From Chthoniobacterales bacterium (GTDB taxonomy: Bacteria; Verrucomicrobiota; Verrucomicrobiia; Chthoniobacterales; JACTMZ01), in NCBI GenBank assembly GCA_044359955.1, contig JBIKLF010000005.1, forward strand, positions 54,843 to 118,842: a stretch of DNA of 64,000 nucleotides, written 5' to 3'. Position numbers and translations under genes: made by a program. This document shows positions 4,264-49,906 of this stretch, piece by piece. Within the stretch, counting starts at the first letter, position 1. Every line of letters starts with the position of its first letter. Below the pieces are notes generated by a model. That model saw only the letters and a program-made list of their open reading frames with translations. It ran no database searches and was not told where the DNA came from.

Positions 4264-6780
4264 ATGTCCAAAACCCTCGTCATTGCGGAAAAACCCAGTG
4301 TCGCCGGCGACCTCGCCCGCGCCCTCGGGAAATTCAAAAAAGAAAAAGGCTACTACGAAGGCGACACCATGGTGATCTCGCACACCGTGGGCCACCTTCT
4401 CGAAATCCAGGAGCCCGACAGCTTCAAAGTCGTCCGCGGCAAATGGTCACTCGAAAATCTCCCCGTCCTCCCCACCCACTTCGACCTCATCCCCCGCGAA
4501 AAAGCCCAGGACCAACTCCGCATCCTGAAAAAACTCCTCGCCCGCAAAGACGTCAGCGAAGTGGTCAATGCCTGCGACGCCGGCCGCGAAGGCGAACTCA
4601 TCTTCCGCTACGTCGCCCAGCACTTCAAAAACGAGAAACCGGTCAAACGTCTCTGGCTGCAGTCCATGACCGCCGACGCCATCCGCCAAGGCTTCGCCAC
4701 CCTGCGAGACGACGCCGAAATGATCCCGCTCGGCGAAGCCGCCACCTGCCGCTCCGAAAGCGACTGGCTCGTCGGCATCAATGGCTCGCGAGCCATGACC
4801 GCCTTCTATAAGGAACTCCTCGGCGGCTTCCAAGTCACCCCGGTCGGACGCGTCCAGACCCCGACCCTCGCCATCCTCGTCGAGCGCGAAGAAAAAATCC
4901 GCAACTTCAAAGCCCGCTCCTACTTCGAAATCCACGGCACCTTCGCCGTCGCCGCCGGCACCTACCCCGGCAAATGGTTCGATGAGGATTTCAAAAAGTC
5001 CGACGACGAGGACACCAAATCCGAGCGCCTCTGGGACCGCGTCCGAGCCGACGAAATCCAAGCCAAGTGCCAAGGCAAGACCGGCACGGTGCACGAAGAA
5101 CGCAAACCGACCACCCAAGCCCCGCCCCTCCTCTACGATCTCACCACCCTCCAACGCGAAGCCAACGGACGCTTCGGCTTCAGCGCCAAACGCACCCTGC
5201 AACTCGCCCAATCCCTCTACGAACGCCACAAAGTCCTCACCTACCCCCGCACGGACTCACGCTACCTGCCGTCCGACAACCTCCCCATCGCCAAAAAGGT
5301 CCTCGCCGGCCTCGACGAACCCCTCGCCACCCACGCCCGCAAAGCCCTGGCCAACGACTGGGTCAAACCGACCCCGCGCATCTTCAACAACGCCAAAGTC
5401 AGCGACCACCACGCCATCATCCCGACCGGGGCCAGCCCGGACAAACTCGACGAATACGAAATGAAGCTCTACGACCTCGTGGCGCGCCGCTTCATCGCCG
5501 TCTTCTACCCGCCCGCCAAATTCGAGGTGACCAAACGCATCACCACCATCGAAGGCGAAAAATTCAAAACCGACGGGAAAATTCTCCGCGAACCCGGCTG
5601 GCTCGAAGTCTACGGCAAACTCGCCGCCGGCGAGGACGACGACTCGCTCGTCCCCGTCAAAGAAGGGGAACCGGCCGCGGCCGAGTCCATCGAGGTCAAG
5701 GAACTCGAGACCAAACCACCCGCCCGCTACAACGAAGCGACCCTCCTCTCCGCCATGGAAGGCGCCGGCAAGCTGATCGAAGACGAGGAACTGCGCGAAG
5801 CCATGAGCCAACGCGGACTCGGCACGCCCGCCACCCGCGCCGCCATCATCGAAGGGCTGCTCACCCAGGAATACATCCGCCGCGAAGGCCGCGAACTCGC
5901 CGCCTCCGCCAAAGGCATGAAACTCATCACCGCCCTGCGGGAAATCAAAATCGACGCCCTCAGCTCGCCCGAACTGACCGGCGAGTGGGAACACAAGCTG
6001 AAGGAAATGGAGGCCGGACGCTTCAAGCGCGACGCTTTCATGGAGGAAATCCGCACCCTTGTGGCCAACGTCATCGCAAAAATCAAAGACGCCTCCGGCC
6101 ACGTCAACAGCGAGACCATGCGCGGCAACTTCCACGACCTCCCCACCAAGTGCCCGAGGTGCGGCAGCACCGCCGGCTTCAAGGAATCCTTCAAGGCCTA
6201 CGACTGCAAAAACCAGGAGTGCAAACTCGTCGTCTGGAAAACCGTCAGCAGCCGCGAACTCGAACCCACCGAAGTCACCACCCTGCTCGAAACCGGCAGC
6301 GTCGGACCGATCAAAGGCTTCAAAAGCAAAATGGGCCGCCCGTTCGAAGCCAAACTCGCCCTCAGCGAAGGCACCGAATGGAAAACCACCTTCGACTTCG
6401 GTGACGGCGGCATCCGCAGCAACGAACCCTTCAACAAGGAAGCCGCCACCCTCATCGTCGAAAAATGCCCCGTCTGCGAAAAAGGCGGCATCTATGAGGC
6501 CGGCATCGTCTACGCCTGCGAGCACGGACTCGGACCCGAGAAAAAATGCGCCTTCCGCATGGGCAAGATGATCCTCCAGCGCGAGATCAGCCCGGACGAC
6601 GTCCGCAAAATTTGCACCGAAGGAAAAACCAATCTCCTGACGAAGTTCATTTCGAAAAAAGGCCGCCCCTTCAACGCCTTCCTCGTCCTCGACAAAAAGT
6701 CCGGCAAAGTTGGCTTCGAGTTCGAAGAACGCAAACCCAAGGCCCCGAAAAAAGCCGCCGCCAAGGCCGCCGCCGCCTGA
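4264..6780 (+). CDS. topB: type IA DNA topoisomerase, topoisomerase III-like, with C-terminal zinc ribbons and GRPF repeats
   Basis: N-terminal Toprim LVIAEKPSVAGDLARAL (IAEKPS is the Topo III style) and active-site region LTYPRTDSRYLP. The C-terminus has CPRCGS...C..C and CPVCEKGG..C motifs plus two KKGRPF repeats. Starts 3 nt after the dprA stop. Confidence 0.85.
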   Translation: MSKTLVIAEKPSVAGDLARALGKFKKEKGYYEGDTMVISHTVGHLLEIQEPDSFKVVRGKWSLENLPVLPTHFDLIPREKAQDQLRILKKLLARKDVSEVVNACDAGREGELIFRYVAQHFKNEKPVKRLWLQSMTADAIRQGFATLRDDAEMIPLGEAATCRSESDWLVGINGSRAMTAFYKELLGGFQVTPVGRVQTPTLAILVEREEKIRNFKARSYFEIHGTFAVAAGTYPGKWFDEDFKKSDDEDTKSERLWDRVRADEIQAKCQGKTGTVHEERKPTTQAPPLLYDLTTLQREANGRFGFSAKRTLQLAQSLYERHKVLTYPRTDSRYLPSDNLPIAKKVLAGLDEPLATHARKALANDWVKPTPRIFNNAKVSDHHAIIPTGASPDKLDEYEMKLYDLVARRFIAVFYPPAKFEVTKRITTIEGEKFKTDGKILREPGWLEVYGKLAAGEDDDSLVPVKEGEPAAAESIEVKELETKPPARYNEATLLSAMEGAGKLIEDEELREAMSQRGLGTPATRAAIIEGLLTQEYIRREGRELAASAKGMKLITALREIKIDALSSPELTGEWEHKLKEMEAGRFKRDAFMEEIRTLVANVIAKIKDASGHVNSETMRGNFHDLPTKCPRCGSTAGFKESFKAYDCKNQECKLVVWKTVSSRELEPTEVTTLLETGSVGPIKGFKSKMGRPFEAKLALSEGTEWKTTFDFGDGGIRSNEPFNKEAATLIVEKCPVCEKGGIYEAGIVYACEHGLGPEKKCAFRMGKMILQREISPDDVRKICTEGKTNLLTKFISKKGRPFNAFLVLDKKSGKVGFEFEERKPKAPKKAAAKAAAA

Positions 6781-9890: not shown

Positions 9891-11594
9891 TCAACCGGCC
9901 GGGGCGCTCCGCAACATGAGAAAATTCGACGATTTTTCGTAGAAGGTGGGCGGCTCGACCGTGCTTCCCTCGGCCAGGCGGCGCTCTTCGCGAAGCAACA
10001 TGTGGTAAACCCACCGCCCACCCAGGGCCGAGGCCACGCGACACCGCACACCGAACTCTTTGCGCAACTGACGCAGCAAGCGGTCGGCCCGTTGATGCAG
10101 CGGGTTTTGGACACGAAAATACCGGCGGATCGCCCACAGAGCCGCCGCGTAGTCCACCGCCAGCCTGCCGGCCTCGCGACGAAAACGCGCCCGCACCCTT
10201 AGGTCGGCGTCTTGACCATAGCGAATCCAACCCTGCCAAGCGGTTTGTGCCATGCGCAGCACGCTCGGGCCGTTGACCTCGAAATCCCGCTCGAAAGCCC
10301 GCAGTAACCAGTCCGATTCACTTCCGGCCGGCAACTGCGGGTGGCGGTGGGCAAAACGCAATTGACCGTGCACATCCGCACCATCCTCCCACTGAGGATC
10401 CAACAACGCTCCGTTGGCCTTGTGCTCCTCAAAGAGCGGCGTTCCGGGCACCGGCGTGTAAAGCATGAATTGATGGAACTCCGTCGCGTGACTCACCGCA
10501 TGCTCGATGACCTCCGCCATGTTGTCCGGACGGTGTTCTTCGAGACCGATAATCGTGGAGCCGAGAACGCTGATGCCGTGTGACCGCAAGGTTCGCACAA
10601 CCTCGAGCGTGTCGACTCCTCGCAGCTTCTGATAGCGGCTCTCCTTGCCCTCCAGCCCCATCCACACCCAGGAAATCCCGAGACTCACAAGCTGGTCGCT
10701 GGTGTAGGACTTGAGCACGTTGGCCGAGCTGAACACGTAGAGAGACCAGCTCTTGCCGTGCTGCTGCATCAGCTCGAGCAGCCGGAGCGCCCGCTGGCGG
10801 TGCAGGAGAAAGTTCTCGTCCATCACGAAAAACGACTGCACCCGCATGTCCCGCTCCAGACCTTCCATTTCCCGGAAAAGCTCGTCCCCGCTCTCGTAAA
10901 AATTGATGAACTTTCCCTTGCCGCCGAACATCGCCGACGTCGCGCAAAAGTTGCACCCCATGGGACAGCCGACCGACGGGATCAAGGTCGCCGCCGTGTC
11001 GCACGAGTCATCCTTCAGTCGCATGCCCATGGTGCGCGCACCGATTCCGGAAAGAATCCGCGGATGCCGCACCGGCGCGTCCTCATCCTCGCCGAGGAAC
11101 CGCCGAAACCACCGCACCCCCTCCCCGCGCACCACATGGTCCGCCTCCAGACGTTCGAGCAGGCGCGGCATCCCTGAGATGTGTCCGCCCACCACAATCA
11201 GCGCGTGCGGTTGAATTTCCCGGATCAGGCGGCACATTTTCCGGGCCTTTAGGTAGTTCGGAGGGATCGCACTGATCGCCACCACATCGTAACGAACCGT
11301 GCGCAACTCCTCGATGAAGCGGTCGAGGGTCGGAAAATCCAGCAGCGCGTTCGGCGCCGAAATGTTTTCCCGGATCATCATCAGCCCCCACGAACGGTGA
11401 AACATCCGCAGCGAAAACGGCCCCTGCACCCGCGTCACCTGATTATGGTAAAGCTCCATCGGGTTGATGGCGCGGCTGCCATATTCATCGTCCCGGGCAT
11501 ACGGCCCGAAAACACTGGTGAAAAGAATGCGCGGGTTCGGAATGGTGCAACGTGAAGCGGTCGCACCAGCCGCAGGAGAGTGATCAATAGTCAT
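9891..11594 (-). CDS. B12-binding domain-containing radical SAM protein
   Basis: CxxxCxxC cluster CPMGCNFCATS, preceded by a cobalamin-binding-like Rossmann segment (YDVVAISAIPPNYLKARKMCRLIREIQPHALIVVGGH). ATG at 11594; the ORF track starts at TTG 11633. Confidence 0.85.
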   Translation of the reverse strand: MTIDHSPAAGATASRCTIPNPRILFTSVFGPYARDDEYGSRAINPMELYHNQVTRVQGPFSLRMFHRSWGLMMIRENISAPNALLDFPTLDRFIEELRTVRYDVVAISAIPPNYLKARKMCRLIREIQPHALIVVGGHISGMPRLLERLEADHVVRGEGVRWFRRFLGEDEDAPVRHPRILSGIGARTMGMRLKDDSCDTAATLIPSVGCPMGCNFCATSAMFGGKGKFINFYESGDELFREMEGLERDMRVQSFFVMDENFLLHRQRALRLLELMQQHGKSWSLYVFSSANVLKSYTSDQLVSLGISWVWMGLEGKESRYQKLRGVDTLEVVRTLRSHGISVLGSTIIGLEEHRPDNMAEVIEHAVSHATEFHQFMLYTPVPGTPLFEEHKANGALLDPQWEDGADVHGQLRFAHRHPQLPAGSESDWLLRAFERDFEVNGPSVLRMAQTAWQGWIRYGQDADLRVRARFRREAGRLAVDYAAALWAIRRYFRVQNPLHQRADRLLRQLRKEFGVRCRVASALGGRWVYHMLLREERRLAEGSTVEPPTFYEKSSNFLMLRSAPAG

Positions 11595-15326: not shown

Positions 15327-15424
15327 CACGGGCAGCCTGCCCGTCACGACCCAATCCACACCCCACTGCAGCGTCGCCGTCCCCGGCGACGATCCCCAGT
15401 AGGGCCCGCTGGCCCCAGCGGGCC
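15327..15424. repeat. cluster of three REP-like hairpins between prfA and prmC
   Basis: Three hairpins: acgggcagcctgcccgt (15328-15344), gtcgccg-tccc-cggcgac (15373-15390, headed GCAG rather than GTAG), and GTAG + ggcccgctggccccagcgggcc (15399-15424), followed by a T6 run. Confidence 0.6.
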
Positions 15425-15437
15425 GCTGCTTTTTTCC

Positions 15438-16289: not shown

Positions 16290-17541
<1,252 letters not shown>

Positions 17542-17589
17542 ACAGTCAGAGCATGCGTTGCAACCATGACCACTCATGCATCTCCGCAG

Positions 17590-17653
17590 GTAGGGACGAG
17601 CGGCCCGCTCGTCCGCCTCGTTTCATACGGGCCCGCGAGCCGCGGGCCCCTAC
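17590..17653. repeat. REPIN-like inverted doublet of GTAG-headed palindromes
   Basis: gtagggacgagcggcccgctcgtcc (17590-17614), a 14-nt spacer, then gggcccgcgagccgcgggcccctac (17629-17653). Intergenic between murA and the KamA-family gene. Confidence 0.75.
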
Positions 17654-17663
17654 CTTGACCGCC

Positions 17664-18839
<1,176 letters not shown>

Positions 18840-18869: not shown

Positions 18870-18895
18870 GTAGGGCGCGGCGTCCCCGACGCGCC
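18870..18895 (+). repeat. GTAG-headed REP-like palindrome
   Basis: gtagggcgcggcgtccccgacgcgcc forms a hairpin with one internal mismatch. It lies 30 nt after the KamA-family stop. Confidence 0.6.
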
Positions 18896-19022: not shown

Positions 19023-19031
19023 CTAAACCCC

Positions 19032-20273
19032 ATGGCCACAATCATCATCCGCCCCCGCGCCCGCCTTTTCCACGGACACGACTGGGTCCACGACAACGAA
19101 GTCCTCAAGGTCACCGGCCAACCCGCAGACGGCGCCGTTGTCGGCCTGAAAGACCAGCGCGACCGCTTCCTCGGCAGCGCCATCTACAACAGCCGCTCGA
19201 AAATCCCGGCCCGCCGCTTCTCGCGCCAACGCCAAGACCTCGATCCTGACTTCTTCCGCCGCCGCCTTACCATGGCGAGCGAATACCGCGACAAACTCGG
19301 ACTCGACCCCCGCGCCCGCCGCGAGGTCTGGAGCGAAAGCGACGGACTCCCCGGACTCATCCTCGACCGCTACGGCGACTGCGTTGTCCTGCAAACCCTG
19401 ACCCTCGCCATGGACCAGCGCAAAGACCTCATCGCCGACGCCGTCGAAGAAATTCTCAAGCCCGCTTGCCTCATCGAACGCAACGACGCCCCCGTCCGCC
19501 AAGCCGAAGGACTCGAACTCCACGTCGGCATCCTCCGTGGCGCCGCCCCCGCCCCCTTCGAAGTCACCCTGGCCGGCGTGAAGTTCGGCCTCGACCTCCC
19601 CGGCGGACAAAAAACCGGCCTCTACCTCGACCAAGCCGACAACTACGCCCTCGTCGCGCAACATGCGAAAGGCCAGCGCGTCCTCGACTGCTTCAGCAAC
19701 CAAGGCGGCTTCGCCTTGGCCTGCGCCCTGGCCGGCGCCAGCGAAGTGATCGCCCTCGACATCTCCGCCGACGCCTGCGCCGCCATCGAGTCCAACGCCC
19801 GACGCAACAATCTTTCCGTAGGTAGGGACGAGCGGCCCGCTCGTCCTCTCGAAAACAACACGGACGGTCGCCACGACGACCGTCCCTACCTCCATGTTGT
19901 CGAAACCAACGTCTTCGACTGGCTCAAAGCCGCCGTGGCCCGCGGCGACAGCTACGACCTTATCATCCTCGACCCCCCCAGCTTCACCCGCGACCGCGCC
20001 CGCTTGAACGACGCCCTCCGCGGTTACAAGGAAATCCACCTCCGTGCGGCCCAACTCCTCAACAACGGCGGCCTGCTCGCCACCTTCTGCTGCTCCCACC
20101 ACGTCAGTGACGCCATGTTCCTCGACGTCATCCGCGACGCCATGATCGACGCCAAGAAAACCGCCCGCCTCCGCGCCACCTACACCCAACGGGCCGACCA
20201 CCCGGTCATCCTCGGCCTCCCCGAGTCCGCCTACCTCAAGGGTCATCTCCTCGAAATGGCTCCGGGGCGCTGA
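19032..20273 (+). CDS. class I SAM-dependent rRNA methyltransferase, RlmI-like (PUA + MTase)
   Basis: N-terminal PUA-like segment, then VLDCFSNQGGFALACALAGA (SAM motif I) and DLIILDPPSF (motif IV). Carries a 24-codon REP-derived insert at 19818-19889. Confidence 0.8.
   Translation: MATIIIRPRARLFHGHDWVHDNEVLKVTGQPADGAVVGLKDQRDRFLGSAIYNSRSKIPARRFSRQRQDLDPDFFRRRLTMASEYRDKLGLDPRARREVWSESDGLPGLILDRYGDCVVLQTLTLAMDQRKDLIADAVEEILKPACLIERNDAPVRQAEGLELHVGILRGAAPAPFEVTLAGVKFGLDLPGGQKTGLYLDQADNYALVAQHAKGQRVLDCFSNQGGFALACALAGASEVIALDISADACAAIESNARRNNLSVGRDERPARPLENNTDGRHDDRPYLHVVETNVFDWLKAAVARGDSYDLIILDPPSFTRDRARLNDALRGYKEIHLRAAQLLNNGGLLATFCCSHHVSDAMFLDVIRDAMIDAKKTARLRATYTQRADHPVILGLPESAYLKGHLLEMAPGR
19818..19889 (+). 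repeat. REP doublet embedded in frame in the methyltransferase CDS
   Basis: gtag-gtagggacgagcggcccgctcgtcc ... ggacggtcgccacgacgaccgtccctac. The left arm is identical over 25 nt to 17590-17614. It spans 72 nt and translates as VGRDERPARPLENNTDGRHDDRPY. Confidence 0.75.
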
Positions 20274-33209: not shown

Positions 33210-33270
33210 GTAGGAACGGTCGCCGCGGCGACCGTCCGCTGCCCTTGTAGCGGCGCCGTCCTCGGCGCCG
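33210..33270 (+). repeat. two tandem GTAG-headed REP-like palindromes
   Basis: gtaggaacggtcgccgcggcgaccgtcc (33210-33237) and gtagcggcgccgtcctcggcgccg (33247-33270). The second matches 48538-48561 with 1 mismatch. Confidence 0.7.
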
Positions 33271-49830: not shown

Positions 49831-49906
49831 GTAGGGCTGGGCCTCCGGGACCGGCCGTGTCAAATCCCCGAGAAGGTTCGCGGTCGGCCCGGAGGTCCGA
49901 CCCTAC
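49831..49906. repeat. REPIN-like inverted doublet
   Basis: gtagggctgggcctccgggaccggccg (49831-49857) and cggtcggcccggaggtccgaccctac (49881-49906), an imperfect long hairpin. Confidence 0.7.

Follow-up and report, generated by a model that had tools for sequence, protein, structure and literature searches.

Intragenic copies of repetitive extragenic palindromic (REP) sequences of the GTAG and CGTC types have been catalogued by Di Nocera et al. (2013, BMC Genomics 14:522, PMC3733652). According to the text of that catalogue in PMC3733652, more than half of the intragenic REPs are dimers or grouped repeats encoding 20–30 amino acids, and the largest number of intragenic GTAG REPs is found in Opitutus terrae, a member of the Verrucomicrobia (for example, the 24-residue VGPALAAGREQRARLPAAGERPPY in Oter_0490). 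Its authors suggest linkers or loops as the location of the inserts and argue for their neutrality. Here, a case of this phenomenon is analyzed in a stretch of 64,000 nt from a Chthoniobacterales bacterium (GCA_044359955.1, contig JBIKLF010000005.1, positions 54,843 to 118,842, forward strand). This stretch is referred to as the window, and coordinates are those of the window unless another locus is named. In it, a 72-nt doublet of GTAG-headed REPs is read in frame inside a gene for a predicted RlmI-like 23S rRNA m5C methyltransferase. The explanation that we consider quite probable is one old in-frame insertion of a doublet of the type putatively moved by REP-associated tyrosine transposases (RAYTs) into a permissive loop, which has since been reshuffled by recombination and is slowly eroding.

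Two other systems are closely related to this case. The Rickettsia palindromic elements (RPEs; Ogata et al. 2000, Science 290:347, as presented in PMC3733652 and PMC3184786) are selfish palindromes that occur in frame in housekeeping genes, and the peptide segments they encode are thought to lie at the protein surface without destroying function. In REPIN/RAYT systems (REP doublets forming hairpins; Bertels & Rainey 2011, PLoS Genet 7:e1002132) and in the bacterial interspersed mosaic elements (BIMEs) of Escherichia coli, the repeated unit is an inverted pair of REPs with a short spacer, as it is here. REPIN/RAYT systems further resemble the present one in having a single-copy RAYT flanked by REPs and in their long, mostly vertical persistence in lineages.

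The window element has in common with the REPs catalogued by Di Nocera et al. that GTAG-headed, GC-rich palindromes, single or as dimers, lie in frame in genes for known proteins. However, the sequences differ: the peptide motifs GRDERP and TSGPLV are absent from the table in PMC3733652, no RlmI-like host stands among the methyltransferase entries examined in that table, and the host order, Chthoniobacterales, is a different one. Furthermore, the catalogue as presented there treats single genomes, whereas the present locus offers an allelic series of empty, full, trimmed, arm-swapped and decayed states. RPEs are ~100–150 bp long, AT-rich, belong to other families (CGTC-type for RPE-4 and RPE-6) and have no known RAYT, compared to the GC-rich GTAG doublet of 68–72 nt found here. 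The element thus falls outside the RPEs by length, composition and head motif, while it acts in an RPE-like manner, as an in-frame selfish palindrome. REPINs, in turn, are described as extragenic and as consisting of two copies of the same REP that form one long hairpin, whereas the window unit is intragenic and its arms differ in their stems, as do the Y and Z REPs of BIMEs. Selfish palindromes inside genes are therefore already known, from Rickettsia (2000) and for GTAG REPs including those of Verrucomicrobia (2013), and no new class of system is represented by this locus. What it adds is a comparative allele series and a contrast in conservation between arm and spacer.

Anatomy of the insert

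The host gene and the parts of the insert are as follows.

19032..20273, plus strand: RlmI-like host gene, 413 aa with the insert (...ESNARRNNLS-VGRDERPARPLENNTDGRHDDRPY-LHVVETNVFDWL...)
19818..19889, plus strand: in-frame REP block, 72 nt or 24 codons, consisting of two GTAG-headed, GC-rich palindromes in head-out orientation
19818..19821, plus strand: extra GTAG before the GTAG head of the element itself (GTAG GTAGGG), present in the window, L055 and L096 and not in L008 and L177 (L numbers denote related loci)
19822..19846, plus strand: left REP arm GTAGGGACGAGCGGCCCGCTCGTCC, with the GTAG head at 19822–19825, a 9-bp stem (19826–19834 / 19838–19846) and the loop GCC (19835–19837)
19847..19861, plus strand: spacer tctcgaaaacaacac, a variant of the spacer type of rlmI inserts (consensus gcccgaaaccgccac)
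19862..19889, minus strand: right REP arm, inverted, GGACGGTCGCCACGACGACCGTCCCTAC (minus-strand reading GTAGGGACGGTCGTCGTGGCGACCGTCC), with the stem 19862–19870 / 19877–19885, the loop 19871–19876 and a CTAC tail at 19886–19889

The block starts 786 nt, or 262 codons, into the open reading frame (ORF; 19818 − 19032), and translation of the ORF shows that it is codon-aligned and contains no stop. This agrees with the preliminary description of the locus, in which a stop-free, inverted GTAG-headed doublet of 24 codons had been reported inside an RlmI-like ORF. Relative to the empty-site alleles L001, L009, L175 and L176, the block is a net gain of 72 nt. A perfect terminal inverted repeat (AGGTAGGGAC / GTCCCTACCT) delimits an equally valid 72 nt at 19820–19891, and the boundaries are thus ambiguous by 2 nt.

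Both arms consist of GTAGGG followed by a 9-bp stem with a loop of 3–6 nt, and their heads point outward. The left arm is identical to an intergenic REP at 17590–17614 over 25 of 25 nt, and the right arm matches, in reverse complement, another at 33210–33237 with 3 mismatches in 28. Both of these relationships, which had been proposed before, were reproduced, and neither arm found a match in 100 shuffles of the window. The RNA of 19800–19910 is predicted to fold at −42.7 kcal/mol, compared to −28.8 ± 3.2 kcal/mol for shuffled sequences (z −4.3). The predicted structure comprises two local hairpins, and its GGUAGG and CCUACC ends pair with each other. The earlier statement that the mRNA carries a strong hairpin in mid-gene can thus be upheld as a predicted fold. 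A scan of 19600–20100 against Rfam assigned no family and gave one sub-threshold chance match (19.7 bits versus a gathering score of 45), and a terminator scan found no sense-strand terminator after the insert hairpins. An intein, an intron and a programmed frameshift were also considered and dropped, since the insert consists of 24 codons of plain repeat DNA, carries no such motifs and is read through in frame.

Two smaller observations concern the spacer and the right arm. On the antisense strand (19885–19852), the right-arm hairpin followed by GTGTTGTTTT fits the pattern of an intrinsic terminator, the T-rich run being present in the window allele only. In addition, the spacer portion TCGAAAACAAC (19849–19859) matches the host sequence TCGAAACCAAC (19903–19913, V-E-T-N codons, 12 nt downstream of the insert) at 10 of 11 positions, with a shuffle p of 0.01 in the window and 0.03 in L002 and no significance in the remaining alleles. 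The spacer might be a duplicated piece of the target instead of element DNA.

Host enzyme and site of insertion

The host protein contains an N-terminal PUA_3 domain (PF17785, E 1.2e-14) and a C-terminal Methyltrans_SAM domain (PF10672, E 5.5e-18), both above the Pfam cut-offs, and it matches E. coli RlmI/YccW (3C0K) at E 5.5e-71 in two HMMER blocks that flank the insert. The catalytic motifs are intact, its DPPSF and TFCCSHH corresponding in the alignment to DPPKF and TFSCS of RlmI. Domain architecture and motifs, together with strong sequence similarity, are common to the window enzyme, E. coli RlmI and TTHA1280 / RlmO, and on these grounds the gene is predicted to encode an RlmI-like 23S rRNA m5C methyltransferase. 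The relatives in the PDB include RlmO (m5C1942) beside RlmI (C1962 of 23S rRNA), so that similarity does not fix the target nucleotide of the window enzyme.

Unlike the window enzyme, the solved RlmI-family homologues have no residues at the position of the insert. The HMMER alignment to 3C0K splits at residues 266/289, and Thermus thermophilus TTHA1280 has a gap of 23 residues precisely over the insert, which bears out a comparison with E. coli RlmI made previously. An AlphaFold2 (AF2) model, built from 47 close homologues and with a mean predicted local distance difference test score (pLDDT) of 60, was used for local secondary structure only. It contains a helix at residues 246–258, a coil at 265–285 (pLDDT <50 at 269–282) and a strand at 286–291, and its top-ranked Foldseek match is 3C0K (template modelling (TM) score ~0.4). 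The insert, for which a protein loop had been proposed, thus appears as a low-confidence coil, placed by the model where helix B of the Rossmann fold is connected to strand 3 by a loop. With 13 of its 24 residues charged and three prolines, it probably forms a hydrophilic, disordered surface loop. Strand 3 of class I methyltransferases has its N-terminal end on the side opposite to the S-adenosylmethionine (SAM) pocket, and from this general topology the site of insertion would lie away from the pocket as well.

Presence and absence among orthologues

Orthology follows from synteny, the loci having in common genes for L31, RF-1 and PrmC, an EPSP-synthase-family gene, a KamA-like gene and the rlmI-like gene. 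The 120 best homologues are 83–93% identical, and 106 of them are of a 389-aa form that lacks the segment (...RNNV-RLNVTETN..., RNNVRLNVTETN). The other 14 carry an insert, in every case in frame, which adds 8 (three proteins), 20 (three), 23 (two), 24 (two), 25 (two), 29 (one) or 32 (one) residues. The net insert lengths seen in DNA are 24, 60, 69, 72, 75 and 87 nt, all multiples of three. The segment is likewise missing from 77 of 80 metagenome loci. These include all loci at 52–58% identity, so that no homologous 24-residue segment was encountered in orthologues lacking the repeat family. Filled and empty alleles thus exist at the same syntenic gene, which is the presence/absence pattern of a mobile element.

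Both states can also be seen side by side in nature. The empty allele (...AACAA-CGTCCGCCTCAACGTCAC-CGAAACC...) is found at 10–21x and the filled allele at 22–25x in the same lake metagenomes (runs X2 and X3; window 19810–19901), and carriers and non-carriers therefore coexist.

Integrity of the locus and constraint on the gene

Three lake metagenomes, which stem from different studies, yield unitigs that contain the junctions of the insert (19760–19849 and 19821–19930) with 0 mismatches and at a flank depth of 22–25x. As both are intact in three independent metagenomes, misassembly is ruled out as their source. In the same kind of data the depth of the left arm is ~100 times that of the flanks, and a repeat of such high copy number is of the kind that confuses assemblers. 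Together with metatranscriptome contigs that end before the insert, this might suggest that a repeat has been misplaced, or that the gene is a pseudogene that stays open by chance. We regard either possibility as scarcely credible. Apart from the error-free junctions at flank depth, the insert recurs in many independent assemblies (the insert-bearing P0001 is present on 24 contigs, and the inserts of L055 and L032 come from genome bins). Moreover, dN/dS of the flanks lies at 0.11–0.24 between insert-bearing alleles with dS up to 0.6, which shows that the gene has been under purifying selection while carrying the insert. As predicted from this ratio and from the loop position, the gene is most likely still functional. 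Its predicted product would release junction-spanning tryptic peptides such as NNLSVGR, PLENNTDGR and PYLHVVETNVFDWLK.

Origin and later history of the insert

The DNA of 13 insert alleles was compared. All have one spacer type, with the consensus gcccgaaaccgccac, which is seen only in rlmI inserts, whereas canonical doublets elsewhere have gctctctttccaac. A spacer type that is common to all insert alleles and found at no other REP copy points to one insertion event. The window, L055, L032, L096 and L002 have a type B right arm (GGTCGCC...), and L008 and L177 have one of type C (GCGCG...); in L178 and L179 the right arm is truncated. In L005 and L180, the same 48-nt internal deletion leaves the remnant GRDERPY. 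The deletion junction, GAGCG[G/A]^CCCTAC, lies between two CCC runs, and the two alleles are placed apart in the gene tree. This would be accounted for if the deletion had recurred through microhomology or had been spread by recombination. L006/L007 and L097 hold a decayed copy without a GTAG head, the left hairpin of which is read in another frame (QGARASRPSRP) and shows one compensatory A-T to G-C change. In L006 (within 10001–11245 of that locus), the insert additionally has the 9 nt cagggggca duplicated in tandem, which reads as QGAQGA.

In neighbour-joining (NJ) trees, filled alleles are interspersed with empty ones. Between the filled L008 and the empty L175 there are 20 nucleotide differences, of which 17 fall within nt 480–900 around the site and none past nt 900, and 5 of the 7 substitutions between their proteins touch the insert. 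In a tree of the first 480 nt, L001 (empty) is sister to L002 (filled) with almost no branch length, while it groups elsewhere in the 3′ part. The scatter of filled alleles is thus attributable to homologous recombination, as seen in the L008/L175 patch and in the L001/L002 segment trees.

Scattered filled alleles and differing right arms could also be explained by an insertion hot spot that REP doublets entered several times independently. This would fit with the polyphyly of filled alleles in the NJ trees, with the existence of two right-arm types, with the difference in state between the very close pair L008/L175 (1.7% DNA divergence) and with the sequence GTCCGC at the empty site, which is similar to the 3′ end of the left arm together with its usual GC flank. 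However, repeated entry would not be expected to leave a single spacer type that occurs at no other REP copy. Furthermore, the insert alleles have changed flanking codons in common (L-S/T-V before and L-H/Q/K-V after the insert), the L008/L175 differences cluster at the site as they would for an imported patch, and the segment trees disagree with one another. Independent insertions are therefore unlikely in our view.

Under the preferred reading of a single insertion, a head-out GTAG REP doublet, BIME/REPIN-like, non-autonomous and putatively moved by a RAYT, would have entered the rlmI-like gene in the ancestor of a freshwater Chthoniobacterales sub-group. The gene would have stayed open because the net length was a multiple of three, because the only frame that contains a stop (TAG in GTAG) was not used, and because the doublet entered the loop that joins helix B to strand 3, at the edge of the Rossmann fold away from the SAM pocket. 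Later on, the insert would have been inherited, with homologous recombination moving it between lineages or restoring the empty allele. Subsequent changes would have been in frame only (the 48-nt internal deletion, indels of 3 and 9 nt, and the swap of the right arm to another REP type), and in some lineages the element would have decayed.

Several points weigh against this reconstruction. The flanking codons differ between filled (NNLSV..YLHVV) and empty (NNV-RLNVT) alleles, and the exact insertion point and the mechanism are thus not readable from them. Retention of the frame is in part an ascertainment effect, because frameshifted copies are not returned as full-length proteins. The unequal stems of the arms mean that the element is not a textbook REPIN, and a tblastn search of the 64-kb window, made with a single RAYT sequence as query, found no RAYT. 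No metatranscriptome contig from four lake runs crosses the insert: contigs of ~95% identical relatives cover 19026–19804 only, the 5′ two-thirds of the gene, and the same metatranscriptomes contain REP fragments from other loci. The full-length protein and its activity are predictions from sequence. Finally, the AF2 model is poor overall, as its scores above indicate, and the surface loop is deduced mainly from the homologue alignment and general Rossmann topology.

Conservation of the arms and drift of the spacer

The variability of arm and spacer was compared for alleles found by protein similarity only, and L032 and L055, which were found by an exact match to the left arm, were left out. 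Between the window, L008 and L096, the 26 nt of head plus left arm are invariant (0/26 variable), whereas 7 of 15 spacer positions vary, as do 36% of the flanking four-fold degenerate sites (Fisher p 3e-4), and the probability of 0/26 changes at the neutral rate is 8e-6. The left arm of L177 is also invariant, so that it is unchanged in four lineages that are dS ~0.4 apart. Over seven lineages, the left arm shows 6 changes in 182 positions and the spacer 12 in 105 (p 0.01), i.e. about three times fewer in the arm. L002 behaves differently: its element differs from that of the window at 12 of 70 positions (17%), compared to 10% of four-fold sites, and it has lost both GTAG ends and carries a GCAG-head variant.

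Since the arm is steadier than the spacer and the peptide drifts, it is not the peptide that is conserved. The pattern suggests that the arms are kept at the level of the nucleic acid in some lineages and decay in others, and gene conversion or selection on REP function would fit with this. The exchange of a type B for a type C arm over an unchanged spacer is in line with such upkeep. A link between decay and REP-poor genomes was considered, as GTAGG-headed hairpins number 0 in the 21-kb loci L006/L007 and 0 in 6 kb of L097 versus 1.2 per 10 kb in the window. It was not retained, since the sequence is too short for significance and L002 decays despite nearby REPs.

The same figures could be taken as a sign of co-option, in which the loop aids the enzyme, or the hairpins have a role in the mRNA or the DNA, such as pausing, stability or protein binding, and host selection retains them. 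The invariant arm in four lineages beside a spacer that varies in three of them, the contrast over seven lineages and the persistence of the insert over dS ~0.4 would all agree with this. However, most of the clade does without the insert, only 8 residues are left in two lineages, two more are truncated, and in L006 and L097 the element has decayed beyond recognition as a REP. In addition, the L002 element changes faster than four-fold sites, the peptide is not conserved, the left hairpin of L006 and L097 is read in another frame, and gene conversion with the many genomic copies explains the conservation of the arm equally well. Co-option is thus decidedly improbable. Of the preliminary suggestion that a normally extragenic mobile hairpin is tolerated, or recruited, as a protein loop, the first part is supported, as the REP family is genuine, the insert is absent from most orthologues, the frame is kept in 14 relatives and the flanks are under purifying selection. 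The second part did not stand up, in view of the drift of peptide and spacer, the trimming to 8 residues and the decay.

A more tentative idea, which we consider possible though rather doubtful, is that the intragenic element is a live member of the REP population, with a process at the nucleic acid level keeping its arms canonical or swapping them while spacer and peptide drift, until loss of the GTAG head leads to neutral decay. Gene conversion with the other copies, whether dependent on the RAYT or driven by homology, could be such a process, and so could selection for binding of the RAYT or a host factor.

The REP family and its transposase

The window contains eight GTAGG(G)-headed hairpins of several stem types, and six of them are intergenic. 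The eight include three head-out doublets (17590–17653, 19822–19889 and 49831–49906). The copies outside the rlmI-like gene referred to here are listed below.

15399..15425, plus strand: single GTAGGG-headed REP with a different stem
17590..17653, plus strand: intergenic REP doublet, its left arm identical to that of the insert, ending 10 nt upstream of the ATG at 17664 of the KamA-like radical-SAM gene
18870..18895, plus strand: single GTAGGG-headed REP between the KamA-like and rlmI-like genes
33210..33237, plus strand: single intergenic REP of the right-arm type
49831..49906, plus strand: head-out REP doublet of yet another stem type

The longest-ORF call of the KamA-like gene begins at GTG 17538 and thereby takes in the doublet at 17590–17653 (...AGRDERPARPPRF...; region 17538–17666). 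The true start is likely the ATG at 17664, which would leave the doublet in the 5′ leader. A metatranscriptome contig holds a related copy of this leader with its REP. In L006, the intergenic copy at 17590 is absent and the neighbouring genes abut.

The search for the 25-mer of the left arm recovered at least 88 exact copies in at least 85 stretches of species-representative GTDB genomes. Most of them are metagenome-assembled genomes (MAGs) of Chthoniobacterales, and the 25-mer is also present in MAGs of Opitutaceae, Akkermansiaceae, Luteolibacter and Kiritimatiellae. The occurrence of the same 25-nt arm in several families and classes is an unusual breadth for a REP sequence. One ‘Pirellulales’ contig with the 25-mer has probably been misbinned, as it contains the rlmI insert. 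The unit usual in Chthoniobacterales consists of AG, GTAGGGACGAGCGGCCCGCTCGTCC, gctctctttccaac, GGACACGCGAGCCGCGTGTCCCTAC and CT in this order, and most copies comprise the left arm, ~14 nt and an inverted second arm. In this order the 25-mers are doublets preceded by AG, whereas elsewhere they are mostly singlets preceded by CG. As the arms of the doublet have different stems, the unit is BIME-like and not a strict REPIN.

A RAYT is encoded in a related genome, where a 169-aa ORF (L089, 4473–4982) is recognized by NCBIfam NF047646 REP_Tyr_transpos at 88.1 bits (cut-off 80; E 4.9e-25) and aligns with PDB 4ER8 at E 1e-8, including the HVH and YIxxNPV motifs; a Pfam scan of this candidate returned no family. 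The exact 25-mer is found on both sides of the gene. At the level of sequence, the family thus shows all the features expected of GTAG REPs/BIMEs with a RAYT, and cleavage and transposition by this RAYT are putative activities. The arrangement in L089 (4330–5200) is that of a REPtron, with the RAYT bracketed on each side by a tail-to-tail pair of a GACGAGCGG-type and a GACACGCGG-type REP and a third pair downstream.

REPs of this family were also seen in other coding sequences. In L053 (6641–6704; MAG CAVZLI010000004.1, Verrucomicrobiae), a true REPIN of two inverted, identical 25-mer arms lies in frame in a gene resembling that for o-succinylbenzoate synthase (OSBS_N, E 1.3e-19). It follows directly after an RLDAN motif (...ANAQ[GRDERPARPLDSVRTSGPLVPT]QFLAKL...), and this gene is a second housekeeping gene with a 25-mer REP. 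A single exact 25-mer is read as VGTSGPLV in large RHS/YD-repeat proteins of a Kiritimatiellae MAG (L017, ~6085–6109) and a Verrucomicrobiota MAG (L031, 4194–4218). It stands at the equivalent place of the YD repeat (NRLI..[VGTSGPLV]R..YD) in two otherwise divergent proteins, one of them encoded by an ORF of 2291 aa. The spacing of the YD repeats appears normal, and not lengthened, with the REP counted in.

Implications

The locus shows that selfish DNA encoding 24 residues can persist over long periods in the gene of a conserved housekeeping enzyme (dS ~0.45 between carriers). For annotation pipelines, it means that ‘extragenic’ palindromes are not necessarily non-coding. The natural allelic series of empty, full, arm-swapped, 8-aa and decayed inserts can be used for probing the constraints on REPs as well as the tolerance of a Rossmann-fold loop to insertion. 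If the intragenic element is indeed a live member of the REP population, REPs in coding regions would provide a natural record of the upkeep of REP sequences.

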